Positions 2 through 29,290 of a stretch of DNA of 64,000 nt are shown piece by piece (the first letter of the stretch is position 1; each line of letters opens with the position of its first letter). A program made the translations under genes and the position numbers. The stretch is taken from the NCBI GenBank assembly GCA_964485575.1, contig CAZAJO010000008.1:921-64920 (forward strand), in the 5' to 3' direction. Under the pieces are notes generated by a model. It was given only the letters and a program-made list of their open reading frames with translations, did not search any database and was not told the origin of the DNA. Origin of the DNA: an uncultured Gammaproteobacteria bacterium (GTDB lineage Bacteria > Patescibacteriota > Microgenomatia > Levybacterales > GWA1-39-11).

Positions 2-3000
2 AACATTTCCATTTGTCCCAAGAGTTGAAACCTGAGTCAGGTTACTTAATAAGATTTGGCCGGATCCATTTGGCGCGATGGTAAGATTTTCATTTGTCCC
101 GGTTGTGATATCTGTTGATACTCCATTGAACGTTAGAGTACCTGTTGTCGTTATGGCACCAGAACTTACTGTTCCGATATTAGTAAGGTTACCTGATGCA
201 TCAATTCTTCTGACTCCATTTGTCTGGATATCTGTGACTCCATTTATTGAAGAGGCAGAAAGTGTTGCTGTTGTACCATTGTCAACGAGTGTAAGCAAAG
301 TATTTGGTGATCCTTCAGCATCCTTTATCGTTAAGGTTCCATTGTTCCCTAATGTTGAAAGCGTAATAGTTGGTGTCGTATTTGAAAGTGTCAGGGGTGA
401 GATGCCTGATAATGTGACAGTACCTGACGCGTCAAGCGTTGTTACCCCGCTTACAGCACCGGCATTTGTGATCCCACCATTATTGTTGTTAAATCCACCG
501 GTGATTGAAGCACCCCCTGCTGATACTGTTAGACCTCCGGTACTTACCGTCAAAAGCCCACCGATAGTTTGAGCAGTTGTAAAGTTATTATTTTGGCCTT
601 TGTACGCAACATTAGATAAGGTACCGGTTGTGTTTATATTGGCGCCATTAACCTGAAGTTGAGAGAGAGCATTAATTGTGTCTACTGAAAGTGTAGCAAC
701 TGTGCCGTTGTCAACGAGAGATAACAATGTATTTGGTGAACCGGCTGAGTCTTTTATAGTAAGGGTTCCAGCTGCATCTCCTGCGCCAACGGTAACAACT
801 GGATTCGTGTTTGAAAGGATGATTGGCGTAGCAGATGAGAACGTATTCGTGTTGGTGAACGTATTTGCCTGGTTAAGATACGCTACGTTTGTGAGAGTTC
901 CAGCAGTATTTATATTAAGTCCATTAAGCTGTATAGCGGTTATCGCATTGAGAACATCAGTCTGAACAGTACCAGAAGCTGTTATATTTGTAGCGCCAGC
1001 TATTGCACCCGTGTTAGTGATTCCACCTGTGTTGTTATTTATACCTCCTGTTATGTTGGCACCTCCCGCAGTCGCTACAAACCCATTAGCAGCAGTTATT
1101 GTTCCAGTTCCGGTTGTTACGATATTGCCTGAGGTCGTCAGATTGCCATTCTCATTTATGGCAAGAGTAGCCGAACCACTTGATTGGATCTGTAAAGCGT
1201 TTTGGATCGATGCATTCGTGTCATTAATGACAAGAGCTGCAGAGCCTGTTCCGGCGTTGGTTATTGTAAATTGTCTAGAGTTGAGGTTTGCAAGAGTAAA
1301 GTCAATGTTTCCTTCATTGTCTGTTGCTGAGATAGTGTTTCCGGCCTCATAAGCTTGTTGCAACGTAACATTGTTAACGTTTGCATTACACGAGGCAATT
1401 TGATTTGAAGCATTTCGACAAAGCCCTGAAGTCCCGTTAGTGCCTAAAGTAGGTACCTGTACAAGATTACTCAAAATTATTTCTCCTGTTCCATTTGGAG
1501 CAATTGTTAGATTCTCATTTGTTCCGGTCGTGATATCTGTACTCACGCCATTGAAGGTAAGCGTTCCGGTCGTAGTTATTGCACCAGAGGATACTGTACC
1601 GATATTAGTGAGGTTGCCTGAAGCGTCTATTCTTGTTGTACCATTTGTTTGTACATTTGATGAAGCATTGACTGTCCCTACAGTCAAAGTACCAACTGTT
1701 CCATTGTCTACTAATGTCAACAATGTATTAGGGGAACCGTTTGAATCATTAATCGTTAAAGTTCCAGCCGCGTTTCCGGCTCCCAAAGTTATAACCGGGT
1801 TAGTGTTTGAGAGAACAACCGGTGTTGCTGAAGAGAACGTATTCGTGTTTGTGAAAGTATTGGCTTGATTGAGATACGCAACGTTTGTGAGAGTTCCAGC
1901 TGTGTTGATGTTAGCCCCATTGAGTTGGATTGCAGTAATGGCATTTAGGATATCCGTTTGGGTAGTACCTGAAGCAGTTATATTAGTTGCACCGGTAATT
2001 GCACCAGTATTTGTTACTCCACCATTATTGTTATCGATTCCACCAGTAATTGAAGCCCCACCGGTTGTTACTGTTAAGGCTCCCCCAATGGTCTGACCAA
2101 CGGTGAAGTTATTGTTTTGACCCTTGTAAGCAACGTTTGTGAGCGTTCCAGTTGTATTGATATTAGTACCGTTGAACAAGAATCCGGTAACAGCATTTAC
2201 GCTTCCGGTAAGAGACAAGTTACCGACAGTACCTGCATCAGTCAATGAGAGCAGGGTATTTGCATCACCATCATTTATTGTAAGCGTGCTATCAACTCCA
2301 GCAGTTCCCAAAATTGCTGTTGGAGCGGCATTGGTAAGTGTTAACGGAGATGCTCCAGAAAGAGTGACTGTCCCTGAAGCGGTGATATTGGTCGCACCAG
2401 CAATAGCACCAGTATTTGTGATTCCACCGGTGTTATTGTTGATACCACCTGTTATGGATGCACCACCTGATGATACAGTCAAAAGGCCAGCGATTGTTTG
2501 ACCGACAGTGAAGTTATTGTTCTGACCCTTATAAGCAACATTTGAGAGGGTACCCGTTGTGTTGATATTTGTTCCGTTCAACAAGAATCCGGAAACTGCA
2601 TTTATTGTTCCTGAAAGCGATAGGTTTCCAACAGTCCCAGCATCTGTTAATGTCAGAAGAGTATTTGGTGAACCTTCAGCATCTTTTATTGTCAGTACCC
2701 CGTTGTTTCCGATTGTTGCAAGAGTAACAATCGGCGCGTTGTCAGAAAGTGTTACCGGATTTGCATTCGAGAATATATTATTTTGTGAGAAAGTATTTTG
2801 TTGATTCTGATAAGCGACGTTTGTGAGTGTACCAGCTGTATTGATATCTGTCCCGTTCAATTGTATGACAGACGTTGCATTGACTGTTGCTCCCTGAATC
2901 GTTCCTGAAGCAGTTATGTTGGTTGCACCAGTGATCGCCCCCGTGTTTGAGATACCACCAGTATTGTTATTAATTCCACCGGTTATTGATGCTCCACCTG

Positions 3001-15000: not shown

Positions 15001-18000
15001 AGGCTCCCGTTGATGGGGTTGTTGCACCAATTGCAGTACTATTTATACCTGTTGCGGTTGCTGTGAAGTTGCCTGAAGTGATCAGTAAATTGTTGACTCC
15101 GGCATTGATAGATGATGCAGACAAACCTGAAAGACTGAGTACCCCGGAAGTTGCGGTAAGATTGATTGCCCCGGTCGTCAGGGTCAACCCATTTGATGCT
15201 GTCAAAAGACCAGCAGATGTTATAGTACCGGTTCCGGTTGTTGCTATATTTCCACTTGTTGTAAGATTTCCAAGCTCATTTATGGTCAAAGTTGCAGATC
15301 CGGAGGACTGAATCTCAAGAGCAGTATTTGTATTCTCGTTATTGTCGTTGATGATAAATGCAGAAGCTGTCCCTTGGTTTGTGAGAGTCAATGAGGTCGT
15401 CTGATCTTGACCCAATGTAAAGTCAATACTTCTTCCAGGAGTCGTTGTTATAGAGTTCCCAGTGTTGTAAGCAGCCTGCAGTCCAAATGGTGCACCGTTA
15501 CAGTACGCAAGGTTGTTACTTACGTCCAAACAAAGGGTGTTCCCATTCTGAGTCTGTAGACCATTGATCTGGATTCTCTCATTAGATGTTGTATTGAACA
15601 CTACGTTGTTACCGGTTGATGGTGTAAATACAGCAGATCCTGAAGCATCAAATGAATTTCCATTTGTGATAATCACATTTCCGTTGAAAGTAGAGATCCC
15701 AGCAACATCTAGAGTACTTCCAAGAGTAGTAGCTCCAGTCCCAACGCTAAAGGTATTGCTACCGGTGACCGTTGTATTCCCGTTCAACGAAACGTTACCG
15801 GTACCCGTGGAGAACGTGTATGCTCCAACTTGGGTAATATTATTATTGAAAGTTCCAACTCCATTGACAGTCAATGCACCTCCAAGAGTCGTAAGACCGG
15901 TTCCTACGGTAAATGTATTTGCTCCCGTTACTGATGTATTTCCATTCAGAAGAGTCAGTGCATTAATGTTGAGGTTCCCAATCCCATTTAATGGGCTTAG
16001 TGTGATTTCACCTGTTGTGTCACCACCGATGGTGAGTGCACTAAGCTCTGTGGTCTGAATAGAACGTGGTGCTCCTGCAAGTGTCAAATTACCAGAGATA
16101 GATGCATTACTGGTCGTCGTAAGCAAAGTGAAATTACCGGTTGAAGGAGTAGTTACTCCAATTGCAGTACCGTTGATACCCGTTGCGGTAGTATTGAAAT
16201 TATTTGATGTGAAAGTCAAATTGTTTCCTCCGGTGTTGATACTTGATGCAGAAAGCCCAGAAAGATTTAATGTTCCCGAAGTTGCGGTTAGATTGAGTGC
16301 TCCTGTTGTTAATGTCAGTCCGTTTGATGCTGTCAAAAGACCTGCAGAGGTTATTGTTCCAGTGCCGGTTGTAGAAATATTGCCACTAGTTGTTAGATTT
16401 CCAAGCTCATTGATAGTGAGTGTAGCAGATCCCGAGGACTGGATCTCAAGGGACGTATTGGTATTTGCATTGTTATCGTTAATGATAAATGCACTAGCTG
16501 TACCAAGGTTTGTTAGTGTGAGTGAAGTTGTCTGATCCTGACCCAATGTGAATGCCAAATTTCGTCCAGGAGTTGTCGTTATCGTATTTCCTGTATTATA
16601 TGCAGCTTGAAGTCCGAAAGGTGCTCCGTTACAGTACGCAAGGTTGTTACTTACGTCAAGACATAGAGTATTACCATTCTGAGTCTGTAGACCATTTATC
16701 TGTATCCTCTCAGTACCAGTAGTATTGAATACTACATTGTTCCCAGACGAAGGAGCAAAAACAGCAGCGCCTGAAGCGTTGAATGAATTACCTGTTGTTA
16801 TAAATACGTTACTGTTAAATGTTGCAGTGCCCGCAACATCAAGAGTGCTTCCAAGAGTTGTAGCACCGGTTCCGACAGTAAAGGTATTGGATCCGGTAAC
16901 TGAAGTGTTTCCATTGAGTGAAACATTACCAGTTCCTGTTGAGAATGTGCCTGTCCCTGTTTGGGAAATGTTGTTGGTAAATGTGCCGACTCCATTAACT
17001 GTTAGTGCTCCCCCGAGTGTTGTAAGCCCGGTTCCAACAGTTAAAGTGTTCGTACCTGTAACTGATGTATTACCGTTTAGAGTGATTGCGCCAGTTCCAG
17101 TTGTGAATGTGCTAGCACCTACCTGGCTTATGTTGTCATTAAATGTGGATACACCTAAGACATTCAATGTACCGTTGAATGCTGAATTTCCATTGACCGT
17201 AAAGTTACCTGCACCTGAAAGAGGGGATACCACAATATTTCCTGTCGTATTTCCACCAATTGTAAGAGTGTTGTTCTCGGTTGTCTGGATCGAGCGGGGA
17301 GCACCGGCAAGAGTTAGATCTCCAGAGAATGATGCAGTACCAGTTGTTGTTAGATTTGTGAAATTACCCGTCGATGGAGTAGTAGCACCGATGGCAGTGT
17401 TGTTTATGCCAGTAGCAGTGACGGTAAAATTACCGGATCCGATGAGTAAATTATTTCCTCCAAACTGTAGTGATGAAGCAGATAGACCAGACAAATTGAG
17501 TGCTCCTGATGTACCGGTGATATTAACAGCACCAGTCGTTACGCTGAGTCCGTTTGACGCTGTCAATAGCGCATTAGATGTTATAGTGCCTGTTCCGGTA
17601 GTTGCTATATTTCCACTCGTTGTAAGATTTCCAAGCTCGTTTATAGACAAAGTTGCAGATCCCGAAGACTGGATTTCAAGAGATGTATTAGTATTGGCAT
17701 TATTGTCATTGATGATAAATGCTGAAGCAGTACCCAGATTAGTCAGGGTAAGAGATGTTGTCTGATCTTGACCCAATGTAAATGCAAGGTCACGACCCGG
17801 AGTTGTCGTTATCGTGTTTCCGGTGTTGTATGCTGCTTGAAGTCCAAATGGAGCACCGTTACAGTATGCAAGATTATTGCTTACATCCAAACAAAGGGTG
17901 TTCCCATTCTGAGTCTGTAACCCATTGATTTGAATTCTTTCATTTGAGGATGTATTAAATACGACATTATTGCCGGTAGAAGGTGTAAATACAGCTGATC

Positions 18001-21000
18001 CTGAAGCATTGAATGAGTTACCAGTTGTTACAAATACGTTGCCATTAAATGTTGCTGTACTAGCAACTGTAAGCGTACTGCCCAACGTTGTCGCACCAGT
18101 TCCGACTGAGAACGTATTGCTTCCTGTGACAGATGTATTTCCATTCAAAGAAACTGTTCCAGTCCCTGTTGAGAATGTACCGGTGCCAACTTGGCTAATA
18201 TTGTTGTTGAATGTTGCAGCCCCTTGTACACTCAAAAGGCCAGTGATGTCGGTGTTACCAGCAATCTGCACAAGTCCAGTCGTATTACCACCGATAGTCA
18301 GAGTGTTAAAGTCGGTCGTCTGAATTGAGCGTGGGGCACCTGCAAGAGTCAGATTCCCAGAGAATGAGGCATTCCCCGTAGTTGTGAGTGTAGTGAAATT
18401 ACCGGTGGAAGGGGTAGTGGCTCCTATTGCAGTATTGTTGATTCCGGTCGCAGTTGTATTGAAGTTTGATGAGGTGAATGTCAGAGCATTTGCACCTGAA
18501 TCAAATGTAGACGCACCAAGTCCAGTAAGAACAATTGCGCCTGAAGAACCAGTTATGTTTACAGCTCCAGCTGTGACTGTAAGGCCATTTGAAGCAGTTA
18601 ATAATCCGTTAGATGTTATTGTTCCCCCTGAGGTTGTGAGGATATTGTCAATAGTTGAAAGAGTTCCATTCTCACTTATTGTAAGCGTAGCCGAACCACT
18701 ACTTTGAATAGACAGTGCATTTTGGATAGAAGCATTGGTGTCATTGATAACAAATGCTGCACTTCCGGTTCCGGCATTGGTGAGCAGGAACTGACGTGAT
18801 GAAAGATCAGCAAGTGTAAAGTCAATATTCCCATGAAGATCGTTAGCAACTATGGTATTTCCTGAATTGTATGCCTGCTGTAGGGTAACATTAAGAGCGT
18901 TTGATGAACAAATAGAAAGCTCGTTTGCCCCATTTCGACAAACAACTGTCGCACCAACGGTTCCTGAAAGATTTGGAATCCTTGTTATAGTATTTAGTAC
19001 TATTTGTCCCGTTCCGTCAGGTGAAAGAGTAAGATCCTCATTTGAATTGGTTGTGATATCTGTTGCAGCACCTGAGAATATGAGCCCTGTAGATCCTATC
19101 GATTTATTTGAAAGAGTCTGGGTCTGATTAGCAAAAATGAATGTGTCATCTGCAGTGAGTGCTGGAATGGTGGCAAATCTTGACGCAGAGGGAGCAAGAG
19201 ATGTGATTGTCGTAGTATTAGTCGTTCCAAGTACTACCTGGTTTGTTGTGTTTGTGAGATTTAGAGACGCAAATGTTGGCGATGATGTCGCAGCGATACT
19301 TTGAGGTAATGAAAGAGAAATAGTACCAGACCCATTAGCCACGAGAACTTGATTTGAAGTACCCGTAATAGTATTCAAACTAAACCCTGACCCATTCCCT
19401 ATGAGAAGAGCTCCATTTGGAGCAGCAGAACTATCCACCCCGGTTCCACCTCTCAAAGGTGCGAGTTGTTGTTCTGAGGCAAGAACACCTGATGCGTTAT
19501 TGATGACAACTCCAGCTGTTGTAAACGGAGATATGGTGACAGATGTATTTGCCGTAACTGTTGTGAATGCTGCAGTTGACGGAGTAGTGGCTCCAATAGC
19601 AGTGCTATTGATTCCAGTTGCCGTGACGTTTAAGTTTGCTGCTCCGATGAGTAAATTATTTCCCCCAAACTGTAGAGATGAGGCAGATAGACCTGAAAGA
19701 CTGAGGGCTCCTGACGTGCCTGTGATATTGACTGCCCCTGTCGTTACGGTAAATCCATTTTGTGCTGTAAGAAGTCCTGCGGATGTTATGGCACCGGTAC
19801 CAGTAGTCAGGATATTTCCGCTAGTCGAAAGGTTACCAACAGACGTTAAGTTTCCGTTCTCAGAGATAGTAAGAGTTGCGCTACCACTTGATTGAGCTTG
19901 GAATACATCCTGAAGTGAGGCATTCGTGTCGTTTATGACAAAAGCAGCTGACCCAGTCCCTGCATTTGTAAGCAAAAATTGACGGGATGAAAGGTCAGCA
20001 AGAGTAATGTCGATATTACCTTCACCATCGGTTGCGCTAATAGTGTTTCCTGCTTCGTAAGCCAGTTGGAGCGAAATATTAGCAGCATTTGCAGGACACT
20101 CAGTTATCTCGTTTGTTATATCATCACGGCACAAGGTGGTCGCGCTTAGTCCAGCAGCTGGAAGATTAAGTAGTTTGGTTATATTTGAAAGGACGATCTG
20201 ACCCGTTCCATCAGGGGTAATAGTAAGGTCTTGATTCGATACGGTTGTGATATCGGTCCCTACACCATTAAAGGTTAGTGACCCTGTCGCTGTGATTGCT
20301 CCCGTTGACAAGCTATTGCTTGTGATCGAACCAGTTGTTATAAGATTTCCATTCTCAGAAATCGTGAGCGTTGCTGAACCGCTACTTTGAATAGATAGAG
20401 CATTTTGGATAGAGGCATTCGTGTCGTTTATGACAAATGCTGCTGACCCAGTACCGGCATTGGTAAGGAGGAATTGGCGAGATGAAAGGTCAGCAAGAGT
20501 GAAATCGATATTACCTTCACCATCGGTTGCGCTTATAGTGTTTCCTGCTTCGTATGCCAGTTGAAGCGAAATATTAGCAGCATTTGCCGGACACTCAGTG
20601 ATTTCATGAGAAGAATCATCACGGCAAAGTGTTGTTCCACTTACACCTGCTAATGGTAAGTTCTCTAATCGTGCAATATTTGAAAGTACGATTTGACCGG
20701 TTCCATTAGGTGTAAGCGTAAGATCTTCGTTACTGACCGTAATCAGGTCATTTGCAGCTCCAGAGAACACGAGTCCTGATGCTCCAATAGTTTTGTTAGT
20801 CAACGTTTGCGTTTGTGCCGCAAAAATAAAGGTGTCATCAAACGTGAGCGCTGGAAGTGTTGCAATACGTGGAGCACCCGGTGCTGGAGAATTTATTGTT
20901 GTAGTGTTTATTGTTCCTAATGACAATTGGTTTGTCGTTGCAGCAAGTCCGAGATTTCCTGCATATGAAAGTGTCGCAGCGTTGTCTCCCGCATTATTCA

Positions 21001-24000
21001 CGAATGCCAATTGGTATGTCGGTGCAGTTGTTAAGATCTGATTTTGGAGACTGAATGTCAGGTTATTTGACGAAGCCCCATTCCAGTAGGATCCTTGTAA
21101 TGACAATAGGTTTGAATTATTCAATGTTGCTCCACTCGTTGATGTGGCAAGTCTCAAAAGAGAGAGGGTATCAACTCCTGTCTGGTCGCCGACATTAAAA
21201 GCTGTCAGAGAAGTTATCGTCGTACCATCGTCTGTAAAATTAGAATCCCCGATATTTGATCCCGTTACGGTAAACTTGGCAAGTCTATTAAGAGTTCCAG
21301 CTCCTCCGACAACTCCACCGGCTCCAGCACAGTTTCCGACAGTAAGACAGACTGTCCCGTCATAGTCTGGAATACTTATTGTCCTCAAAGTTCCAGTTGT
21401 TATTTGACTAAGATCAAATAAGAATTGCTTTGTATTATCACCGTCATCCTGGAATGTGATTGAATTATCTGTAAGTAGTTTGTTTGTTAGAGTCTGGCTT
21501 TGGTTGGCAAAGATAAATGTGTCATTTGCACTAAGTCCTGGGATCGTAGCAATCCTTGAAGCTGCTGGCGCAACCGAGGAGATAGTCGTTGTGTTCCCAG
21601 TTCCCAAAACCAATTGATTTGTTGCCGCAAGGGAAGTAAGAACTCCTGCAGTCGTTAGATTCCCGTTCTCATTAATGGTAAGAGTAGCAGAGCCACTGCT
21701 TTGAATAGATAGGGCATTTTGTACGGACGCATTTGTATCATTTATGACAAATGCAGCACTTCCTGTACCTGCGTTTGTGAGCAGGAACTGTCGTGATGAA
21801 AGATCTGCAAGAGTTAGTGAAATATCACCAAACGAGTTAGAAGCGCTGATTGTGTTTCCAGCTTCGTACGCTAGCTGAAGGGAAATGTTTGCTGCATTTG
21901 CTGGACATTCGGTGACCTGATGAGATAAATCATCGCGGCAAAGTGTCGTTGCGGCAACACCTGCGACTGGCAGGTTCTCAAGACGCGTGATATTGGAAAG
22001 AACAATCTGGCCGGTTCCATTTGGAGTAATGGTAAAGTCCTCGTTGGCAAGCGTTGAGATGTCTGTTGCAGCACCAGAGAAAACAAGACCAGTCGTACCA
22101 ATGGTCTTATTGGTGAGGGTTTGAGTTTGCTGCGCGAAAATAAATGTATCATCGACGGTAAGTGCTGGTAATGTTGCAATTCGTGGGGCAGAAGGCGCAA
22201 CCGAACTTATTGTTGTCGTGTTTCCAGATCCCAAAACCAATTGATTGGTTGCCGCTTGCGCTGTCAAAGTTGTTGCTGAAAGGATAGACCCGGTTCCGGT
22301 GGTTAGGATATTTCCCGACGTTGATAGGAGCCCATTTTCATTGATGGTAAGAGTTGCGCTACCACTGCTTTGGATAACGAGTGAATTATTGACAGAACCG
22401 CTCGTATCATTGATTACAAAAGCACTTGCTGTTCCGACGTTTGTTAGAAGGAGGGAAGTCGAAAGACCTGATCCTAATGTAAAGTCGATATTCCTATTTG
22501 CTGTTGTAGTTATCGTATTTCCTGAATCATAAGCAAGCTGCAATGAGACGTTGCTAGCATTTGCCGGACATTGTGTAATCTCGTTACTGACGTTATCACG
22601 ACAAAGGGTAGTTGCGGCAACTCCGGCAGCAGGAAGACTACCAAGTCTTACTGTATTCGAAAGAACAATTTGCCCAATCCCTGAAGCAGACAAAGTCAGG
22701 TCTTCATTGCTTGCGGTCGTTATGTCTGTGGCAGCACCTGAAAAGATAAGACCTGTAGATCCGATTGTCTTGTTACTTAATGTCTGCGTTTCGTTTGCAA
22801 ATACAAAAGTGTCTGACGCATTTAAAGCAGGTATCGTTGCTGTCCTTGGGACTGACTGTGAGTTGGAGTTTATAACAAGCGTATTACCGGCAGCACCTAG
22901 CGTAAGCTGATTACTTGTGTTTGAAAGTGTTTGCGATGCGAATGTCGGTGACGAAGTAGCGGCAATATCTTGAGGCGTAGAAAGAACAATTGTTCCACTA
23001 CCGTTCACAACATTTACCTGATTTGATGTACCTGAAATGTAATTAAGACTAAGTCCGGTACCATTGCCTATTAAAATCTGCCCAGGCAAAGCTGCTGATG
23101 TATCAAGGCCTGTTCCTCCTCGAGCCGGATTGAGTTGAGCGATAGTTGAGAAAACTCCCGAAGAATTATTGATTACAACTCCATCTGTTATGAAGCTTGA
23201 AAGAGTAAAAGCACCATTTGCCGACAGGTTAGTAAAAGCACCCGTTGAAGGGGTAGTACTACCCACAGCAGTACTGTTGATTCCGGTAGCTGTTGTGTTG
23301 AGGTTTGCTGATGTAATGAGTAAGTTATTTACTCCAGTTGATATACTTGAACCAGATAGGCCTGACAAATTAAGCGTACCTGCAGTAGCGGTAAGGTTAA
23401 GAGTGCCGGTTGTTAATGTAAGACCGTTTGATGCAGTAAGTGTTCCGGCTGAAGTAATAGTACCTGCTCCGGTTGTTAAGATATTTCCACTCGTTGACAA
23501 AATACCGTTCTCGTTGATGGTAAGTGTCGTTGAACCACCTGATTGCACTTCCAATGCATTCTGGATAGCAGCATTTGTATCATTGATAACAAGTGCTGAA
23601 GAGGCGGTTCCTGCATTTGTTAGGGTTAATGCACGGGCACTATCAGATGCCAACGTAAAGTCTAAGTTGCCGATAGAATCTGAAACGCTTATCGTGTTTC
23701 CGGAATTGTAAGCAAGTTGCAGTGAAATGCCACCAGCGTTTGCTGGACATTGAGTTATCTCGTTGCTGACGTTATCGCGACAAAGAGTTGTAGCACTTAC
23801 CCCAGGCCCTGGAAGATTTAAAAGACGGGTAGTGTTGGAAAGAACGATTTGCCCTGTCCCATTTGGAGTAATGGTGAAGTCTTCATTGGCAAGCGTTGAA
23901 ACATCAGTCGCTGCTCCTGAAAAGGTAAGGCCGGTCGCACCGATAGTCTTGTTGGAAAGAGTCTGTGTTTCATTGGCAAAGACAAATGTGTCATCCGCAG

Positions 24001-26113
24001 AAAGTGCTGGTAGTGTCGCAATTCTGGCAGCTCCCGGAGCAGGAGAGGTAATAGTTGTCGTGTTACCGGTCCCCAAGACTATCTGGTTTGTAACAGCCTG
24101 AGCAGTCAATGTTGTTGCAGAGACAATTGTGCCGGCACCAGTCGTTAGGATATTGCCGGATGTTGATAAATTATCTCCAGCAGTTGTTGGGGCGATTGTA
24201 GAGGTTCCATTGTTGCGGGTGAAAAATCCGACAGTACCCGAAGTATTGGTTGTTGTTATATTTCCAGAACATACAAGATTGCCAGTTGCGTCATCAATTG
24301 TACATCCCGTTGTGCCTGATCCCCCTGCAAGAGAAACATCCCCATCAGACGCAATTAGGAGCGCTTGCGCTCCTGTAGTGGTGTTGTATATCGTGAATTG
24401 TGACGTATCCACATTCACGGAATAATCATCCTGACCCACATCACTATCCACGAAAAATACCGAAGGATCAGAATTGGCTATAGTGATATCTCCGCCTGCT
24501 GTAGTTGTACCGGTGAGATAAAGATTTCGATAACGCCTGAGCGCAGAACCGAGATCGTAGGTATCATCAGCACTTGGTCCGATACTTCCAGCAACCTCAA
24601 GCCTAAAAGGATTACCATCAGCATCGAGGTCATCTGGTGCAACACCAATACCGAGACGGCCATTCGGAATCGTGACGAGTCCCGCTCCAATCGTCGCAGT
24701 GTCTAGGGCAGAACCGATATTGATGATATCAGCGGCAGTGTTGTCCGTTGCAATATTTATGACGTTTCCAGCCGTACCTGTGCCGACATTGATGATTTTT
24801 GCATTGTTTCCGGTGCCAAGATTGACTGTGCCGGTCGTGCCACTGTCAAGCGTCAAAGAGCTAGCTCCAGCAGAGAGCACTGACCCTGCACCTGTAAAAC
24901 TAAGGATTGTACCGCCTAGGTTAAAGTTGTTAGCAACGCCTGTTACTGATGTCAAGGTAGAAGATAATTGGATGTTGGCTTCTCCTGATGGACTTTCTGT
25001 GACATCAAAATCTCCACCAAGAAAATCCAGAGCATTTATCACATTCGAGACGACTACATCATTCTCTTTGATAGTTGCAACAGCAAAAGATGTGATATTA
25101 GTCCAAGAAGGAATGCCTGATGGGTCAACTGTTAAAAACTGTCCAGTCGTTCCGATCGGCAGCCCTGCAAGAACGTCAGTGGAAGCTGCATAGATGATGT
25201 CACCGGTCGTGTATGTAGAAAGTCCAGTTCCACCTACACCAACACTTATAAGTCCCGTCTTTATTGCTTCTCCGGCTACCGATCCTCCAGACCCAATTGT
25301 TAAAGTATTTGCAATATCTGGATCAGTGAGACATGAAGAACAATGTCCACGTGCAACCAAAGTTTCGAGTGTCGTTATGTCGGAAATGGTGAGATCAGTT
25401 ATCTGTATGCCATCACCCGCAAGAAGCTCTATATCACCTGTCTGACCCTGGAGTGAAGTAACCCCACTGGCATCCACAGAAATCGTGGGGGACTGTGGAT
25501 CTCCACTCAAAGTCACATTGTCACCAGCGGTTAGACTGTAGACTACATTTGGAGCTGTGATATTCCCTTTGAAAAGACTCGTACCCTCAACGAGAAGATT
25601 TTTCTTTATCGTTAGGTTCTCACGAGCAACAACCGGCAGTCCAAAAATCACACTACCGGTTAGCTTCAATTTGCTTGTTTGGGTTCCAAGTACTTCCGGT
25701 GTTTCGGTTGCGACATCTGTAGATTTAATTATTTTTGGAGCTGAATTCTTTATTAGCTGTTGCCTTGCAAAAACACCAGTAACGAAAAGTGCTGAGGCTA
25801 AAACACCGAGAACCAGGGTTTTCTTTGTTGGTTTGAGGTATGCGAATTGAAAGAATAGCCTTGTAGCCTCAAAAAGGAGGCTCATACTGTTGATAAATGA
25901 CTGAAATGGGCTTATAGTTTTATCAGCTGATGGAACAGCATCCACCTTAGCTTTGCTAGCTTCTACGAGCTTGGTAAGATCATCTTGCCTGTACTGAAAT
26001 TCTCCTTTTTCGTTGGTAAATGGGGTAAGTGAGTGGCGGTCGCAGAGATACACAAGGGTTTCTACTGAAACACCAAGCTGACGAGCTGCCTGTTTTAACG
26101 TTAATAATTTCAT
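2..26113 (-). CDS. Giant repetitive cell-surface protein, start at 26113 and 3' end beyond the window (over 8,700 aa in-window). N-terminal HTH_17-like domain plus a single TM helix, then a Thr/Gly/Asn/Ser-rich repeat ectodomain
   Basis: Reverse-complement translation from the ATG (revcomp of 26111-26113) gives MKLLTLKQAARQLGVSVETLVYLCDRHSLTPFTNEKGEFQYRQDDLTKLVE... then a hydrophobic stretch KKTLVLGVLASALFVTGVFA. Frame spot-checks at about 960-1060 give in-frame ...GANITGGINNNTGGITNTGAIAGATNITASGTVQ.... There is an in-frame stop upstream at 26195-26197. The supplied complete-ORF track has no long complete minus-strand ORF in 1-26113, which is what a frame open to the window edge would give (complete interruption check not possible by hand). 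All plus-strand ORFs here are V/P-rich antisense artefacts of the same repeats. Confidence 0.8.
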   Translation of the reverse strand, partial: MKLLTLKQAARQLGVSVETLVYLCDRHSLTPFTNEKGEFQYRQDDLTKLVEASKAKVDAVPSADKTISPFQSFINSMSLLFEATRLFFQFAYLKPTKKTLVLGVLASALFVTGVFARQQLIKNSAPKIIKSTDVATETPEVLGTQTSKLKLTGSVIFGLPVVARENLTIKKNLLVEGTSLFKGNITAPNVVYSLTAGDNVTLSGDPQSPTISVDASGVTSLQGQTGDIELLAGDGIQITDLTISDITTLETLVARGHCSSCLTDPDIANTLTIGSGGSVAGEAIKTGLISVGVGGTGLSTYTTGDIIYAASTDVLAGLPIGTTGQFLTVDPSGIPSWTNITSFAVATIKENDVVVSNVINALDFLGGDFDVTESPSGEANIQLSSTLTSVTGVANNFNLGGTILSFTGAGSVLSAGASSLTLDSGTTGTVNLGTGNNAKIINVGTGTAGNVINIATDNTAADIINIGSALDTATIGAGLVTIPNGRLGIGVAPDDLDADGNPFRLEVAGSIGPSADDTYDLGSALRRYRNLYLTGTTTAGGDITIANSDPSVFFVDSDVGQDDYSVNVDTSQFTIYNTTTGAQALLIASDGDVSLAGGSGTTGCTIDDATGNLVCSGNITTTNTSGTVGFFTRNNGTSTIAPTTAGDNLSTSGNILTTGAGTIVSATTLTAQAVTNQIVLGTGNTTTITSPAPGAARIATLPALSADDTFVFANETQTLSNKTIGATGLTFSGAATDVSTLANEDFTITPNGTGQIVLSNTTRLLNLPGPGVSATTLCRDNVSNEITQCPANAGGISLQLAYNSGNTISVSDSIGNLDFTLASDSARALTLTNAGTASSALVINDTNAAIQNALEVQSGGSTTLTINENGILSTSGNILTTGAGTITSAGTLTASNGLTLTTGTLNLTATAGTLNLSGLSGSSISTGVNNLLITSANLNTTATGINSTAVGSTTPSTGAFTNLSANGAFTLSSFITDGVVINNSSGVFSTIAQLNPARGGTGLDTSAALPGQILIGNGTGLSLNYISGTSNQVNVVNGSGTIVLSTPQDIAATSSPTFASQTLSNTSNQLTLGAAGNTLVINSNSQSVPRTATIPALNASDTFVFANETQTLSNKTIGSTGLIFSGAATDITTASNEDLTLSASGIGQIVLSNTVRLGSLPAAGVAATTLCRDNVSNEITQCPANASNVSLQLAYDSGNTITTTANRNIDFTLGSGLSTSLLLTNVGTASAFVINDTSGSVNNSLVIQSSGSATLTINENGLLSTSGNILTTGTGSILSATTLTAQAATNQLVLGSGNTTTISSVAPSAPRIATLPALTVDDTFIFAQQTQTLTNKTIGTTGLVFSGAATDISTLANEDFTITPNGTGQIVLSNITRLENLPVAGVAATTLCRDDLSHQVTECPANAANISLQLAYEAGNTISASNSFGDISLTLADLSSRQFLLTNAGTGSAAFVINDTNASVQNALSIQSSGSATLTINENGNLTTAGVLTSLAATNQLVLGTGNTTTISSVAPAASRIATIPGLSANDTFIFANQSQTLTNKLLTDNSITFQDDGDNTKQFLFDLSQITTGTLRTISIPDYDGTVCLTVGNCAGAGGVVGGAGTLNRLAKFTVTGSNIGDSNFTDDGTTITSLTAFNVGDQTGVDTLSLLRLATSTSGATLNNSNLLSLQGSYWNGASSNNLTFSLQNQILTTAPTYQLAFVNNAGDNAATLSYAGNLGLAATTNQLSLGTINTTTINSPAPGAPRIATLPALTFDDTFIFAAQTQTLTNKTIGASGLVFSGAANDLITVSNEDLTLTPNGTGQIVLSNIARLENLPLAGVSGTTLCRDDSSHEITECPANAANISLQLAYEAGNTISATDGEGNIDFTLADLSSRQFLLTNAGTGSAAFVINDTNASIQNALSIQSSGSATLTISENGNLITTGSITSNSLSTGAITATGSLTFNGVGTDITTVSNQDLTITPDGTGQIVLSNITKLLNLPAAGLSATTLCRDDITNEITECPANAANISLQLAYEAGNTISATDGEGNIDITLADLSSRQFLLTNAGTGSAAFVINDTNASLQDVFQAQSSGSATLTISENGNLTSVGNLSTSGNILTTGTGAITSAGLLTAQNGFTVTTGAVNITGTSGALSLSGLSASSLQFGGNNLLIGAANLNVTATGINSTAIGATTPSTAAFTTVTANTSVTISPFTTAGVVINNASGVLASEQQLAPLRGGTGVDSSAAPNGALLIGNGSGFSLNTITGTSNQVLVANGSGTISLSLPQSIAATSSPTFASLNLTNTTNQVVLGTTNTTTITSLAPSASRFATIPALTADDTFIFANQTQTLSNKSIGSTGLIFSGAATDITTNSNEDLTLSPDGTGQIVLNTITRIPNLSGTVGATVVCRNGANELSICSSNALNVTLQQAYNSGNTIVANDLHGNIDFTLADLSSRQFLLTNAGTGSAAFVINDTNASIQNALSIQSSGSATLTISENGTLSTIDNILTTSGGTITSNGLLTASNGLTVTAGAVNITGSSGAIVLTGLGASTFDSGANALTFTSSNFNTTATGINNTAIGATTPSTGNFTTLTTTGNASFSGNLTLAGAPRSIQTTDFNTLTIGGNTTGLVQIAGNTDITGLLSVQGAATFNNNISQVGTGTFSTGTGTVSLNGNTSVTGSNTFSVGTGATTLGSTLTVASTATFNGNVFVTTGNSFNASGSAVFTPSTGNNVVFNTSSNERIQINGLQTQNGNTLCLDVSNNLAYCNGAPFGLQAAYNTGNTITTTPGRDLAFTLGQDQTTSLTLTNLGTASAFIINDNNANTNTSLEIQSSGSATLSINELGNLTTSGNIATTGTGTITSNALLTASNGLSVTTGAVNITGTSGALNLSGLSASSLQFGGNNLLIGSGNFTVTATGINNTAIGATTPSTGNFTNLTTTGTASFSGDLTLAGAPRSIQTTENNTLTIGGNTTGNIVVSPLSGAGNFTVNGNSAFNGTLNVLGVSTFNDNISQVGASTFTTGTGAITLNGNTSVTGTNTLTVGTGLTTLGGALTVNGVGTFTNNISQTGTGTFSTGTGNVSLNGNTSVTGSNTFTVGTGATTLGSTLDVAGTATFNSNVFITTGNSFNASGAAVFAPSSGNNVVFNTTGTERIQINGLQTQNGNTLCLDVSNNLAYCNGAPFGLQAAYNTGNTITTTPGRNLAFTLGQDQTTSLTLTNLGTASAFIINDNNANTNTSLEIQSSGSATLTINELGNLTTSGNISTTGTGTITSAGLLTASNGLTLTTGALNLTATSGTLNLSGLSASSINTGGNNLTFTSNNFNTTATGINGTAIGVTTPSTGNFTLLTTTSNASISGNLTLAGAPRSIQTTELSALTIGGDTTGEITLSPLNGIGNLNINALTLLNGNTSVTGANTFTVGTGLTTLGGALTVNGVGTFNNNITQVGAYTFSTGTGNVSLNGNTTVTGSNTFSVGTGATTLGSTLDVAGISTFNGNVIITNGNSFDASGSAVFTPSTGNNVVFNTTSNERIQINGLQTQNGNTLCLDVSNNLAYCNGAPFGLQAAYNTGNSITTTPGRSIDFTLGQDQTTSLTLTNQGTASAFIINDNNENTNTALEIQSSGSATLTINELGNLTTSGNIATTGTGTITSAGLLTASNGLTLTTGAINLTATSGVLSLSGLSASSINAGVNNLLITSGNFTATATGINSTAIGATTPSTGAFTTLSSTGTTNLGTSGASDVNIATTGTGNVAIGNATGTFAVTSNGGLNVTTLGALTGVISLDTIGVSATDLTFAGVGTISATGSNSLTLDTGTTGDINLGIGNSAKTIYIGTGTGGNVINIATNDTLADIVNIGSLLDTINLVGSVTANNFNSSGVTVTGGTINGTSVGATVRSSGAFTTLAANSTVLIENLTTSSGTALCIDSFDNIIKCSIGSGTGTLQSSYNNGNTILTNDGRNIAFTLAPGLNLPTSFTLENQSTASAFILNDTSAGGGGTFFDLQSNGASTLKVSEAGVIYLAGDNTSDITTLVGGTDITINPASSTVDATGGNLRLVAGTSTAGGSTGGSVTINAGAGASANGSINIGTLSTGNTVNIGTDNTSPDFINIGSGTDTVNLVGAVTANNLSSSNAVITGGSIDNTPIGNTTRSSGKFTTLAANSTVTIENLVTVVGSPLCTNGDDEVVLCDVGSSAGTLQSSYDNGNTILTNSGRNIDFTLASGLNAATSLTLTNEGTASAFIINDNNAAPNQVALEIQSGGNRRLTIDESGNASTSGYISSSNSIQTIGSGTITSANGLFVTAGGASINGGINNNTGGITNTGSITGATNITASGTSQGDILNAVTSIQTNGTQRVDASGNLVNIGTIASGAITTTGTLTFSGVSTDITTVSNQDLTLLANGTGKIVLNDTVGIPILAGVQGFTVLCQNATNELSQCDPTAFGVTLQSAYNGGNTILTTAGKNIDFTLDSGLTTQLRLTNAGSANAFVINDSNVGSGGIVFEVQSASVSALTISELGTISTSGNIATTGTGTITSAGALTVSAGGASITGGINNNNGGITNTGAITGATNITASGTIQGDTINALTAFQLNGTSINVGGTLSNVAYLDQANVFTNTNTFSSAAPLTLSNSAPDITLATAGNNGVLRIRDAEGSPNTLLALTDAGTVGNLAISGTINAVSGFQLNGTNINTTGTLTNVAYKGQNNNFTVGQTIGGALTVTTGGASITGGINNNTGGITNTGAITGATNITASGTTQTDILNAITAIQLNGVNINTGGTLSNVAYLDTANTFTLGQTINTGGITVVAGGANISGGINNNNGGITNTGAIAGATTIAASGVVTLSGASPLTLSNTTPIITLGAGNAAGTLTIKDSNGTPNTLLTLVDNGTVATLTVGTINATSALQLNGANINTANTLTNVAYKNQSNTFTAGQIITTGGLAIQAGGLDVTGGINNNAGGITNAGAISGATSIDASGVVTLSNAAPLTLSDSAPVITLATAGTNGVLTIKDAEGAPNTLLTLTDTGTTGNLSVTGSINAGTGILLGGTNINTTGTLTNVAYKGQNNNFTVGQTIGGALTVTTGGASITGGINNNTGGITNTGAITGATNITASGTIQGDIINAITALQLNGTDINTAGILTNVAYKNQSNTFTAAQIISSGGLSVTGGINNNNGGITNTGAIGSATTIDASGLVTLSSSTPLALTATTSAITVAAAGSNGTLTIRDGEGSPNTLLTLTDTGTVGNLSVTGTINAVGGYLLNGTNINTTGTLTNVAYKGQNNNFTVGQTIGGALTVTTGGASITGGINNNAGGITSTGAISGVTDITASGVVTLSGASPLTLSNAAPVLTLATTGVDGVLTIADAQGSPNTLLTLTDNGTNATLAVANINATTGFLLNGTNINVGTTLSNVAYLDQANLFAIGQTINTGGITINAGGANITGGINNNTGGITNTGAITGATNITASGTIQGATINATSVFQLNGTSINTTGTLTNVAYKGQNNNFTTAQNIAGTVTITGAATDITTGSNEDLTLVANGSGVINLNDTIQIPTLASPDGSTALCRNAGDFLSACAPNSNGVTLQLAYDAGNTILTTSGRNIDFTLYDENTDSGTPTSFTLMNAGSANAFVINDVRTGSGGIAFEIQSASASALTITELGTITTSGNIATTGTGTITSAGALTVSAGGASITGGINNNTGGITNAGAISGATTIGASGLVTLSAASPLTFSNTNPIVTLGAGNANGVLTIRDSAGSPNTLLTLTDAGTVGNLSVTGTINAGTGYLLNGTNINTAGTLTNVAYLNQANIFTAGQTITTGGLAIQAGGADITGGINNNTGGITNTGAITGATNITASGTTQTDILNAITAIQLNGTNINTAGTLSNVAYKNQSNTFTAAQIISAGGLSVVGGINNNNGGIINTASISGATTIDASGVVTLSGANPLALTNGTPNISLATAGVDGVLTIKDAEGSPNTLLTLTDAGTVGNLSVTGTINAANGFLLGGTNINTTGTLSNVAYKGQDNNFTVGQTIGGALTVTTGGASITGGINNNTGGITNTGAISGATTIGASGLVTLSAGSPLTFSNTNPIVTLGAANANGTFTIKDSAGVPNTLLTLTDAGSVGNLSVTGSVNAGTTLQIGGVDINTAGTLTNVAYQNQSNTFTALQTITTGGLTISADGASITGGINNNTGGITNTGAITGATNITASGTIQGATINGTSVIQLNGVDINTAGTLTNVAYQNQANTFTALQTISSGGLTISAGGANITGGIDNNVGGITNTGAIAGATTIAASGTVTLSSGSPLTLSNTTPIITLGAGNAAGVLTIRDSNGAPNTLLTLTDNGTTATLAVANINATTAFLLNGTSINTTGTLSNVAYKGQDNNFTVGQTIGGALTVTTGGASITGGINNNAGGITNTGAITGATNITASGTIEGATLNATNNIQTNGVTRLDVIGNLTNINTISSGAITTSGVLTFNGVPTDITTGPNENLTLAPNGTGEILLNNYVQVATLSATTGLTTVCRNASNQLSTCAANASAVTLQQAYDAGNTILTTSGRNIDFTLDSGLSTQFTLTNAGSANAFVINDTNAGTGGVALDVQSAGVSKLSISELGNISTSGNITTTATGTITSAGALTVNSGGAYLKGGINNNSGGIINTGSITGITNLTASGTATLTGSSPLTLSNANPNIRLATAGTDGTLTISDAEGSPNTLLTLTDNGTVGTLSVGTVNASTGFTLGGTDINTTGTLTNVAYKGQNNNFTVGQTIGGLLTVTTGGITVSAGGASINGGINNNAGGITSTGAIAGATTIAASGTVTLSSAAPITLTNSAPDITLGAGDANGTLSIKDSAGSPNTLLTLVDNGTDATLTVGTVNALSALQINGANINTTGTLTNVAYKGQNNNFTVGQTIAGLLTVSSGGASITGGINNNTGGITNTGAITGATNITASGTIQGATLNATSVIQLAGTDINTAGTLTNVAYQNQANTFTALQTITTGGLTINAGGANITGGIANNAGGITGTGAIAGATTIDASGTVTLSSASPLTFSNTNPIVTLGAGNAAGVLTIRDSNGAPNTLLTLTDNGTTATLAVANINATTAFLLNGTSINTTGTLSNVAYKGQDNNFTVGQTIGGALTVTTGGASITGGINNNTGGITSAGAISGATTIDASGTVTLSSASPLTLSNNAPVLTLATAGNNGVFTIKDAEVSPNTLLTLTDNGTNGTLTVANVNATTALQFNGTNINTTGTLSNVAYKGQNNNFTVGQTIGGLLTVSAGGANITGGINNNAGGITNTGAVSGATNITASGTIQGGTLDATTSVQTSGTDRIDASGNLVNIGTISSGAITTTGTLTFDGVSTDITTGTNEDLTLTPNGTGQIVLSNLTQVPTLGTNGTIGLCRNALNQIATCNAATATLQTAYDNGNTITTTTGRNIAFTLAGGLGSPTSFTLTNAGTANAFILNDTAAGTGGIAINVKSNGTSTLTIDELGNLTTSGNIVTTGTGAITAAGLLSATNGASISAGLDNNLGGITNAGAITGATNITASGTIEGDIINAVSAFQLNGTSINTAGTLTNVAYKNQNNNFTVGQTIAGLLTVSTGGASITGGINNNTGGLTNAGAISGATTIAASGTVTLSGVSPLTLSNASPIVTLATQGTNGVLTIRDAELSPNNLLTLTDYGDGGSLSVSSISATTSLQLNGVDINTAGTLTNVAYRNQNNNFTVGQTIAGLLTVSSGGASITGGINNNTGGISNTGAITGATNITASGTIQGATVNATSVIQLNGTDINTAGTLTNVAYQNQQNTFSQNNIFSNANPVTLSDNAPIVTLATIGNNGVLTIKDAEGSPNTLLTLTDAGTVGNLSLSGTINAVSGFLLNGTNINTTGTLSNVAYKGQNNNFTVGQTIAGLLTVSSGGASITGGINNNTGGITNTGAIAGATNITASGTVTLSGASPLTLTNAAPTAILGTAGVDSTLTINDGDANTLLSLTDAGTVGNLSLTGSVNAVTGFLFNGTNINTTGTLTNVAYKGQNNNFTVGQTIGGALTVTTGGASITGGIDNNNGGVTNTGAITGATNITASGTTQTDILNAITAIQLNGANINTAGTLTNVAYLNQANTFTNTNTFSSATPVVLSNTNPVITLGAGNAAGTLTINDSNGSPNTLLTLVDNGTVGTLTVGTVNASSNVQTNGTTRIDASGNLTNIGTVSSGAITTTGTLTFNGVSTDITTGTNENLTIAPNGTGEIILSNLVQVPTLGTNGTSGLCRNASNQIASCNANVNNVTLQQAYEAGNTISATDNEGNIDFTLANLNSRQFTITNAGTGSAALVINDTNASIQNALQIQSSGSATLAINENGNLTTSGNIVTTGTGTITAANGFVATAGGANITGGINNNTGGITNTGAIAGATNITASGTVQTDVLNAITAIQLNGLNINTAGTLTNVAYLNQANTFTNTNTFSSATPIILSNTNPVVTVGAGDAAGTLTIKDSAGSPNTLLSLVDNGTVATLSVDTINALSQLQVNGANINTTGTLSNVAYKGQNNNFTTAQTIGGLLTVSTGGLTVSAGGASITGGFNNNNGGITNAGAVSGVTTLDASGTVTLSGISPLTLSNTTPTITLSTLGNNGTLTIKDAEGSPNTLLTLVDNGTTATLSASSINGVTDIQTNGVRRIDASGNLTNIGTVSSGAITTTGTLTFNGVSTDITTGTNENLTIAPNGSGQILLSNLTQVSTLGTNGNV
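4860..5430 (-). repeat. Copy 1 of a near-identical intragenic duplicated segment, offset 2220 bp from copy 2
   Basis: 4876-5030 matches 7096-7250 (about 155 bp, about 98% identity). 5336-5423 matches 7556-7643 (88 bp with 1 mismatch). The constant 2220-bp offset means a 2.2-kb super-repeat. Confidence 0.8.
7080..7650 (-). repeat. Copy 2 of the near-identical intragenic duplicated segment
   Basis: See copy 1. The shadow ORFs 4872..5225 and 7098..7445 share an identical 50-aa stretch. Confidence 0.8.
15480..18900 (-). repeat. Three tandem copies of a coding repeat of about 1.13-1.23 kb (about 380-410 aa) inside the giant gene
   Basis: The anchor 'cagtcc(a/g)aa(t/a)gg(t/a)gc(a/t)ccgttacagta(c/t)gcaag' occurs at about 15481, 16611 and 17841. 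The flanking sequence is about 85-90% identical. The shadow ORFs 15564.., 16725.. and 17970.. share ...VVAPIAVLFIPVAV...PFDAVKRPADVIVPVPVVAIFPLVVRFPSSF... Confidence 0.7.
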
Positions 26114-26600
26114 TGACGAGTTTTGACTATCGCGTATATATAAAACGGGTGTATATCTAATGTATCTATTTTCGATAAAACTAGTCAACGTATGTTAATG
26201 ATAGGTACTGTAACAAACTGTACTGTTTTTCATAAAAAAATATATAACGTGTAGAAGCGGTTAAAAAGCGAAAAAAAATGATGATGCATTATGTTATAGA
26301 AAGTAGTAGTCATCCTAAACCGTATCAAATCTTAAAAAACAGAATATATTTCACAAAAACTTTTCACGCACATTAATCTTATAGTAACTATTCAGCAAAT
26401 TTTAATATTTTTATTTTCTCAAAATTGCAGAAAAAAATATTTCATTTTTCGCAAAATTAAAATTGACTTTTCACAGAATTGCGATATTTGAAGCTAATTA
26501 TTTTACGGTATTATAAATTGCTTTGATATAACAGAATAAAATGCATTATTGAGTTTATTAGTAGTACATAATGTAATTTAGCTTGGATTCAAGGCCAAAT
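26114..26600 (-). promoter_or_regulatory. 487-bp AT-rich non-coding spacer between the giant-gene start and the 3' end of atpC. It presumably holds the giant-gene promoter. A candidate minus-strand -35 TTGACT lies at 26176-26181
   Basis: No ORF or structured-RNA signature is visible. The AT content is very high with homopolymer A/T runs. There is a -35-like hexamer but the -10 is ambiguous. Confidence 0.3.
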
Positions 26601-26873: not shown

Positions 26874-26883
26874 AAGATCCTAT

Positions 26884-29287
<2,404 letters not shown>

Positions 29288-29290
29288 ATG

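Follow-up and report, generated by a model that had tools for sequence, protein, structure and literature searches.

A giant multi-tier repeat protein encoded beside the ATP synthase operon of a Patescibacteria-like lineage, a candidate phage-fibre-like adhesive surface fibre

The nearest functional precedent for the gene described here is provided by the mosaic adhesive trimer (MAT) fibres of Bdellovibrio, for example Bd2133 and Bd3182, which are used by a small bacterium living on other bacteria (PMC10769870). A second point of reference is gp12, the pre-neck appendage of phage phi29 (PDB 3gqh, 3suc), a virion protein with an enzymatic right-handed beta-helix. In the searched passages of a survey of genes encoding at least 10,000 amino acids (aa), Patescibacteria are not named among the phyla with large genes (bioRxiv 10.1101/2023.11.21.568195), and literature searches found no description of the protein family analyzed here. 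How ultra-small Patescibacteria that depend on hosts find and hold them is largely unexplained beyond type IV pili. A concrete candidate is a single giant gene on the minus strand of a 64,000-nucleotide stretch (the window) of contig CAZAJO010000008.1, assembly GCA_964485575.1. The gene occupies positions 2-26113, and we favour the interpretation, with a probability of about 0.6, that it encodes the main chain of a very long, N-terminally anchored, trimeric, tail-fibre-like adhesive surface fibre.

Translation of the reverse complement, which the initial annotation of the window had proposed as a check, shows that the minus-strand frame from position 26113 to 2 contains 8,704 codons and no stop under genetic codes 1, 4, 11, and 25. 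The proposal of a single giant open reading frame (ORF) is thus borne out, and the use of an alternative genetic code was rejected since there were no stops under any code tested. At the local base composition, a stop is expected about every 18 codons, and therefore the probability of such a run arising by chance is about 1e-216. The frame begins with the ATG at 26113 and runs past the window edge, which is why no complete minus-strand ORF was listed in the interval 2-26113, as had been supposed. Upstream of the ATG the frame is rich in stops, and the sole alternative start is an in-frame TTG at 26186-26188, which would add 25 codons. Plus-strand ORFs of 150-346 aa within the gene are shadow ORFs. 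The base composition at the three codon positions is strongly asymmetric, as it should be in coding DNA.

The in-window part of the protein has a mass of 855 kDa and an isoelectric point of 4.05; its C-terminus lies past the window edge. The most abundant residues are threonine (18.3%), glycine (13.4%), asparagine (11.5%), alanine (10.4%), leucine (9.4%), and serine (9.1%), in keeping with the composition noticed earlier, and there are only three methionines, two tryptophans, and five histidines. The cysteines are paired, nearly all as C-x9-10-C, with the exceptions of C24 and a CxxC at residues 258/261. The G+C content of the gene is 0.43-0.46, compared with 0.35-0.42 in the remainder of the window, and the attribution of this rise to the amino-acid composition was correct.

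Most of the chain is a repeat body, and the description of it as multi-tier holds, with revised unit sizes. The cysteine-flanked modules, first estimated at about 110 aa, are Cys-loop modules of about 154 aa, present in 16 complete copies, with a 17th starting at the window edge. What had been described as units of about 100 aa are two classes: about 19 long units of 136-138 aa and about 12 short units of 78-85 aa. The two share the core GGINNNxGGITNxGAIxGAT, and a long unit equals a short unit into which about 55 aa are inserted. Repeat region I (aa 621-2346; 19076..24253), delineated by self-comparison, module alignment, and a hidden Markov model domain table, contains five of the approximately 154-aa Cys-loop modules and connectors of the form TATIPAL..TFVFA..QTLSNKTIG. 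Region II (aa 2347-3862; 14528..19075) is built of four super-repeats of 350-410 aa with one Cys-loop module each, and it is to these four units that the tandem repeats of about 400 aa reported at first are limited. Region III (aa 3863-4360; 13034..14527) consists of two repeats of about 250 aa with the second copy of a "tail fiber domain" motif. Region IV (aa 4361-8704; 2..13033) is formed by super-repeats of 860-1,130 aa, in which one Cys-loop module is followed by strings of long and short units.

None of the repeats of the in-window protein are recognized by Pfam, NCBIfam, or PHROGs. Sub-threshold matches to DUF4251, AnkUBD, and an FtsX fragment in these databases were rejected as noise. 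Searches of PDB sequences with phmmer and with a profile of the repeat module also gave nothing significant, the best match being a phage spike with an E-value of 0.21.

The repeats have diverged from each other, with identities of 50-90% at the protein level and 60-88% over 300 nucleotides (nt) of DNA. The longest exact DNA repeat in the gene is 110 nt, and there is none of 127 nt or longer. It is therefore unlikely that an assembler collapsed or expanded the array, and collapsed repeats were rejected on the basis of the divergence of the copies. A scan of one genome per species with the N-terminal region identified 23 related loci. In 22 of these species-level loci the homologous frame is open to the end of the DNA examined, for as many as 4,121 codons. 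In the one remaining locus (L020), a lone in-frame TAA interrupts the homologue at codon 669, and the same frame is open beyond it.

The closest relative (L001, 91% identical) is colinear with the window over the first 2,900 codons, with an amino-acid identity of 85-97%. Over this part, the proportion of nonsynonymous differences (pN) is 0.03-0.10 and that of synonymous differences (pS) is 0.55-0.76, which gives pN/pS ratios of 0.05-0.15; for atpD, used as the control between the same two genomes, pN is 0.03 and pS is 0.64. The giant protein is under purifying selection, judging from these sequence comparisons. Beyond residue 2,900 the window and the relative differ by exactly one 410-aa super-repeat, the relative lacking one unit of region II, and thus the number of modules varies between close relatives.

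Fragments of the family are plentiful in metagenomes, and all of them end at contig ends. The N-terminal 600 aa match 1,153 representative proteins with E-values of 1e-3 or lower, 42 of them with 1e-30 or lower, and the fragments are up to 5,023 aa long. In the sources they bear names such as "beta strand repeat-containing protein" and "S-layer family protein". The related metagenome-assembled genomes are labelled inconsistently as Candidatus Levy(i)bacteriota, Patescibacteria, or Saccharimonadales. Several of the closest are labelled "uncultured Gammaproteobacteria", which is considered unreliable. The source organism is likely to be of the Microgenomates/Levybacteria type. In one further locus (L024, a contig from ENA) the gene is broken over all three frames in a pattern that looks like indel errors, possibly of a long-read assembly, and not like biology.

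These data bear on three alternatives: that the giant ORF is the product of faulty assembly, that it is a pseudogene, or that it is left over from a prophage. The gene is repetitive, yet it has no exact repeat of 127 nt; the TAA in L020 stands against a frame kept open in 22 independent assemblies and a pN far below pS; and the splitting of L024 into many frames resembles an assembly with many indel errors. The modules in common with phage, described below, could indicate a prophage, but phage genes are absent nearby within the window and the gene has a fixed chromosomal place beside the atp genes, so a prophage origin was rejected. The probability of the artefact, pseudogene, and prophage explanations together is close to negligible.

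The N-terminal region that is free of repeats is about 620 aa long, somewhat shorter than the approximately 700 aa proposed when it was first noticed. It begins with a helix-turn-helix (HTH) of the MerR/HTH_17 type (aa 3-52; 25958..26107). When the first 80 aa were searched alone against Pfam, HTH_17 reached 28.8 bits against a cut-off of 27 and MerR_1 24.0 bits against one of 21.6. MerR_1 is matched by 23 of 24 family members, and the profile of the HTH matches MerR-type HTH structures in the PDB. A low-complexity linker connects the HTH to a hydrophobic helix (aa 98-117; 25763..25822), identified by hydropathy, which is the sole 19-aa window with a Kyte-Doolittle value above 1.8 in all 8,704 residues. 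The 15 residues ahead of it have a net charge of +4, and the share of charged residues drops from 24% ahead of the helix to 6% past it. The lone helix, the preceding positive charge, and the drop in charge suggest that it is a transmembrane (TM) signal anchor with the N-terminus inside and the remainder of the protein outside.

The helix is followed by a conserved, non-repeated, membrane-proximal ectodomain (aa 130-620; 24254..25726), defined by alignment with eight homologues (P0001-P0008). It contains a phage-spike-like beta-helix piece near aa 160-195, with a weak match to the spike protein gp45 of phage Mu (E-value 0.0026), the CxxC at residues 258/261, which is invariant, and the motifs GGTG...P.W at aa 286-348 and LGIG...NLYLTG at aa 485-536. 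Residues 400-484 carry the "tail fiber domain" motif, which recurs at aa 3690-3850 and shares 59-69% identity with tail-fibre proteins of Paceibacterota that have Peptidase_S74 at their end. The motif GGTG...GD.LY....L..LP.G..GQ.L......P.W (aa 286-348; nt 25070-25258, minus strand) is a widespread repeat. In one representative protein of 4,745 aa (P0125), 56 separate stretches match the 600-aa N-terminal query, best on the GGTG...P.W motif.

The modules of the repeat body also have a relative in a phage. Over 133 aa, a long unit shares 64% identity with P0073, a 733-aa protein encoded at 10001-12202 of a metagenome contig (L025, logan SRR6986812_545). This gene has an SU10-type adaptor gene directly upstream, the gene of a major head protein 2.5 kb upstream, and that of a further virion protein downstream. 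P0073 is therefore encoded by a phage structural gene in the tail-fibre position. The similarity suggests that modules have been exchanged between phage and these cells. The P0073 sequence starts with a signal-peptide-like segment.

The C-terminus of the protein was sought outside the window. An exact look-up with atpC retrieved a 3.3-kb contig only, and a search for homologues of the final 800 in-window residues yielded just six fragments. However, a composite homologue could be put together from four metagenome contigs that overlap at 99.3-99.9% identity and by one exact, unique contig-end overlap of 116 nt. It forms a single ORF of 11,381 aa (1,107 kDa) after atpD-atpC, with a stop after ...NWWIVN. 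The composite shares the N-terminal layout of the window protein, with an HTH that appears partly deleted, and its last approximately 1,500 aa are non-repetitive. The full length of the window protein is thus likely to be about 11,000 aa.

In several homologues the C-terminal part exceeds the Pfam cut-off of 25 bits for Peptidase_G2 (PF11962): P0078 scores 28.8, P0085 30.6, P0098 29.1, and P0106 32.1. The C-terminus of the composite itself is below this threshold. A C-terminal profile of 25 sequences matches Bdellovibrio Bd2133, in its beta-helix region, with an E-value of 1.7e-7, the chaperone of the Dpo31 tailspike with 2.8e-6, and the C-terminal fragment of phi29 gp12 with 3.9e-6. The family motif DlAEYF takes the form ADYAEYF in the composite and the form ADYGEYF in P0078; in the profile alignment it falls on residue 1 of 3gqh_A, which starts with DFAEYFE. 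The AlphaFold2 model of P0078 has predicted local distance difference test (pLDDT) values of about 88-96 in the barrel and in the terminal sandwich, and the fold agrees with that of the C-terminal fragment of gp12. The last 70 aa of close homologues of the composite C-terminus match K1-lyase_C weakly. Full-length homologues thus end in an auto-chaperone barrel of the phi29 gp12 type, a coiled coil, and a tailspike-like terminal beta-sandwich.

Other kinds of ends and anchors were looked for. No beta-helix or pectate-lyase family was detected in the 8,704 aa of the window protein or in the last 1,499 aa of the composite homologue, and its C-terminus contains a G2-type chaperone instead of one of the S74 type. 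The homologue C-terminus (...NWWIVN) has neither an LPXTG motif nor a TM helix. In the in-window protein and in the homologue C-terminus, there was no Pfam or NCBIfam match to an RTX or type I secretion signal, a YadA-type anchor, SLH domains, or Ig-like or cadherin repeats. The gene 3' of a full-length homologue (L034, 5806-8850) has a product of 1,014 aa with a hydrophobic helix at the N-terminus and, as its only match, a weak MG2-like one, and a fragment of an IS1595-type transposase is located further downstream.

The initial annotation had proposed a surface adhesin, fibre, or host-attachment structure, possibly beta-solenoid-like. It had overlooked the cytoplasmic HTH domain, the actual sizes of the units, the conservation of the synteny with the atp operon, and the probable length near 11,000 aa. 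This proposal of a surface fibre or adhesin has gained independent support from the lone signal-anchor helix, from a syntenic family in more than 20 genomes under purifying selection, from modules that also occur in a phage virion protein and in Peptidase_S74 "tail fiber domain" proteins, and from the tailspike-type auto-chaperone C-terminus of the homologues together with its match to a Bdellovibrio fibre; the adhesive or host-attachment function itself we infer. An alternative is that the protein is a monomeric giant adhesin or part of an S-layer-like coat, in which a single-chain beta-solenoid or string of beads covers or roughens the cell surface. The names given to fragments of relatives are in line with such a coat, as is the likeness in composition to other giant bacterial adhesins, and in Vampirococcus giant membrane proteins have been tied to a fibrous coat (PMC8080830); the trimer, moreover, is deduced indirectly. 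However, the gp12-type auto-chaperone and the tailspike-like end domain of the homologues belong to obligate trimers, the modules are common to a phage virion protein, and neither the SLH, Ig-like, cadherin, or RTX domains sought with Pfam in the in-window protein nor an LPXTG motif at the homologue C-terminus were found. We consider the monomeric adhesin or coat unlikely.

Several points weigh against the trimeric anchored fibre. Only homologues show the auto-chaperone, and their repeats are 45-79% identical to those of the window protein, whose own C-terminus is outside the window. In the composite, the join of L030 to L029 relies on the 116-nt overlap, which lies inside a repetitive gene. 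The repeats themselves have no significant match in Pfam, NCBIfam, PHROGs, or PDB sequences. Profile searches and structure prediction on the repeat units, which the initial annotation had suggested, were run and did not identify their family or fold: AlphaFold2 gave a pLDDT of 61 and a predicted template-modelling score of 0.31 for aa 5469-5900, modelled from an alignment of 28 internal repeats, an unreliable model. A V-F-A/R site past the helix at aa 98-117 could permit cleavage by signal peptidase, which would remove the proposed anchor. Trimerization, export, autocleavage, and adhesion are all inferred.

If the gene encodes an anchored fibre, the following mechanism can be envisaged. The HTH would stay in the cytoplasm, with the helix at aa 98-117 serving as an N-in signal anchor, and the other 8,600-11,300 residues would be exported. 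Three chains would then be aligned with each other and folded, starting at the C-terminal auto-chaperone, in the manner of a phage tailspike, and the chaperone may subsequently cleave itself off at the conserved D-Y/F-A-E-Y-F motif. The product would be a trimeric beta-helical fibre rooted in the membrane, of which the distal, non-repeated part of about 1,500 aa would form an adhesive tip for locating a host or partner cell. Its length may be tuned by the gain and loss of whole modules. In Bdellovibrio Bd2133, 370 residues were measured to span 142 Å (PMC10769870). By extrapolation of this scaling, the in-window part would be about 330 nm long and the full-length fibre about 430 nm, or 0.3-0.45 µm overall. 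A fibre of this length would match or exceed the length of such cells.

The HTH at the base of the protein invites another explanation, in which the giant protein is mainly a membrane-tethered transcription factor or sensor of the MerR type that follows a ToxR/CadC-like logic, the ectodomain reporting contact or tension and the HTH binding DNA. The HTH passes the Pfam thresholds and is present in 23 of 24 members, but the coiled-coil dimerization helix and the effector domain of MerR proteins are absent after it, their place being taken by the linker, the TM helix, and the ectodomain. Two short Patescibacteria proteins (P0102 and P0122) share the HTH-TM-fibre layout and are named "MerR family DNA-binding transcriptional regulator". 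A smaller paralogue with an HTH and two TM helices adjoins the giant gene in seven loci. The HTH also seems to be partly deleted in the 11,381-aa composite, and a sensor domain of 8,600 aa is implausible as the main purpose of such a protein.

The region 5' of the gene has been considered in the same context. A conserved leader or promoter region of about 110 nt (26114..26225, minus strand) contains the hexamers TTGACT-18-TACATT (26159-26188), detected by a promoter scan, and the in-frame TTG at 26186-26188. It is nearly invariant in the window and in four related loci (L001, L002, L006, and L007), whereas other parts of the 490-nt spacer vary. This strong conservation counts in favour of the sensor reading. 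However, the leader has no palindromic operator or similar inverted repeat, which counts against it. An obvious Shine-Dalgarno sequence is also absent from the leader, and no Rfam family was found in the window. Taken as the main function of the protein, a role as a sensor or regulator is quite improbable. In a milder form of the idea, the membrane-tethered HTH could report the state of the fibre to the chromosome.

The extra HTH paralogue, 430-500 aa long, is encoded between atpC and the giant gene in L009, L011, L013, L015, L016, L018, and L022 (for example at 7953-9329 of L013). It has the same MerR-type HTH N-terminus and a low-complexity ectodomain flanked by two TM helices. Its C-terminal domain (…LSKLVTRLGFVGIKRDLFFPRTSK…) is strongly conserved, and Pfam gave no match for it. 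The paralogue is not present at the equivalent position in the window.

In every related locus with enough upstream DNA, metagenome contigs included, the giant gene directly follows the atp operon. In the window, the conserved upstream neighbours, identified with Pfam and from their ORFs, are atpC, atpD, atpG, atpA, atpH, and a b-like ORF (26601..32167, minus strand), with atpC (26601-26873, minus strand) directly upstream of the giant gene. The ATP synthase had rightly been named as a neighbour, whereas the pilus locus mentioned with it is 20 kb away (type IV pilus genes at 46363-60804). Beyond the atp genes the window encodes GH130, PBP1A, NUDIX proteins, a tRNA-synt_1b protein (class I, Trp/Tyr-type), RecG, RNase III, TrmD, and GyrB.

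In related loci the atpE position of the operon is taken by the gene for a 281-aa protein (33432..34277 in the window, minus strand), which may be a partner of the fibre or carry a paralogous domain. It has a signal peptide and an N-terminal secreted barrel homologous to the C-terminal chaperone barrel of the fibre (BLASTP E-value 1e-10 against the homologue C-terminus). The C-terminal hairpin can be aligned over its full length with F-type c subunits, and all eight PDB profile matches are c subunits, the best with an E-value of 0.0074. However, helix 2 has no aspartate or glutamate in any of 15 orthologues, so that the ion-binding carboxylate is absent, and no a-subunit gene was seen beside the gene.

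The loss of the carboxylate, the chaperone-like barrel, the missing a-subunit gene beside it, and the fibre gene after atpC raise the idea that the fibre and the products of the neighbouring F-type ATPase operon belong to a single machine. In that case the F1-type ATPase, instead of or besides making ATP, might serve to keep the fibre in place, to put it together, or to set it in motion. There is a parallel in principle in Mycoplasma mobile, in which an F1-like ATPase powers giant surface "leg" proteins. The order from atp to the giant gene is invariant, but gene order is generally conserved across this small-genome clade, and the giant gene, which lies past a 490-nt spacer, is preceded by a conserved promoter-like leader of its own. 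The c-like protein without a carboxylate and with a barrel homologous to the fibre chaperone is the other argument for the machine; its assignment as a c subunit is marginal (E-values of 0.007-0.03), and the F1 subunits look ordinary. We regard a joint machine as highly improbable, and the odd c-subunit-like neighbour as a separate testable lead.

Some features of neighbouring genes were recorded in passing. AtpD (26884-28395, minus strand) and AtpA (29291-30925, minus strand) have low-complexity tails of about 40-70 aa that are rich in proline, glutamine, and threonine, and tblastn matches to related loci mostly stop before them. A 330-aa ORF with multiple TM helices (34258-35250, minus strand) overlaps the start of the gene for the 281-aa protein (orf33432) and has no Pfam match; it has no counterpart in any related locus and thus looks like a lineage-specific insertion. 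The type IV pilus locus also contains a gene for a 674-aa glycosyltransferase similar to TMEM260 and PMT_2 (53369-55393, minus strand), flanked by the genes of a pilin and of the prepilin peptidase. It could be an enzyme for the O-glycosylation of pilin or surface proteins.

The fibre interpretation of the giant gene, if correct, extends the principle of the phage fibre as an adhesin, known from the Bdellovibrio MAT fibres, to another phylum and to a tenfold larger size. The conserved chain of about 1 MDa has parts that are recognizably those of phage receptor-binding fibres but would be rooted in the cell membrane. If genomes of this kind measure about 1 Mb, one gene of 26-34 kb claims about 3% of what they can encode, and an outlay of this size implies that its role is central. 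Genes of such length are systematically truncated in metagenome assemblies, and the HTH-TM-fibre architecture is at present mis-annotated under the name of MerR regulators.

Among described proteins, the MAT fibres are similar to the fibre proposed here in being cell-borne, phage-tail-fibre-like, and beta-helical, with swappable distal ends and a C-terminal chaperone logic. The two differ in size, about 1,000 aa in MAT fibres and from at least 8,704 to 11,381 aa in the giant family. At the N-terminus, MAT proteins have a signal peptide and a beta-rich domain that is conserved and about 130 aa long (PMC10769870), whereas the giant protein has the MerR/HTH_17 domain, the linker, and one TM helix. 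At the C-terminal end, MAT proteins have an S74 chaperone (SDxxxK) or another tip, and the giant-family homologues a chaperone of the G2 (gp12) type. The giant protein thus falls outside the MAT family in its N-terminal domain and its type of chaperone. Phage phi29 gp12 is 854 aa long, and its structures contain chains of 767 residues (3suc) and 163 residues (3gqh). The giant protein is more than ten times longer, chromosomal, and membrane-anchored, and its homologues add a coiled coil and a beta-sandwich after the chaperone. It does not belong with gp12, since no enzymatic beta-helix was detected in it, nor with the MerR regulators, from which it differs in everything past the HTH.

The giants of Omnitrophota (bioRxiv 10.1101/2023.11.21.568195) and those of Vampirococcus (PMC8080830) resemble the giant protein in being very large and mostly extracellular, in occurring in ultra-small host-dependent or predatory bacteria, and in their proposed role in attachment. 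The Omnitrophota proteins have many TM helices, SecA-DEAD domains, and enzyme domains, whereas the giant protein has one TM helix and no enzyme domain. The largest proteins of Vampirococcus, a predator of the candidate phyla radiation, have 4,163 aa and classical adhesion domains (PMC8080830), compared with at least 8,704 aa here. Also close are Patescibacteria proteins with a Peptidase_S74 "tail fiber domain" or the HTH-TM-fibre layout (P0027-P0031, P0102, and P0122), which have the motifs of aa 400-484 and 3690-3850 in common with the giant protein; however, they are 500-1,100 aa long and mostly fragments, and they all lack the multi-tier repeat body as well as the link to the atp genes. The giant protein is thus of a known kind, that of cell-borne phage-fibre-like adhesins and giant surface proteins, and what sets it apart is its great length, an HTH-TM anchor, a chaperone of the G2 type, and a place in the genome that is fixed behind the atp operon.

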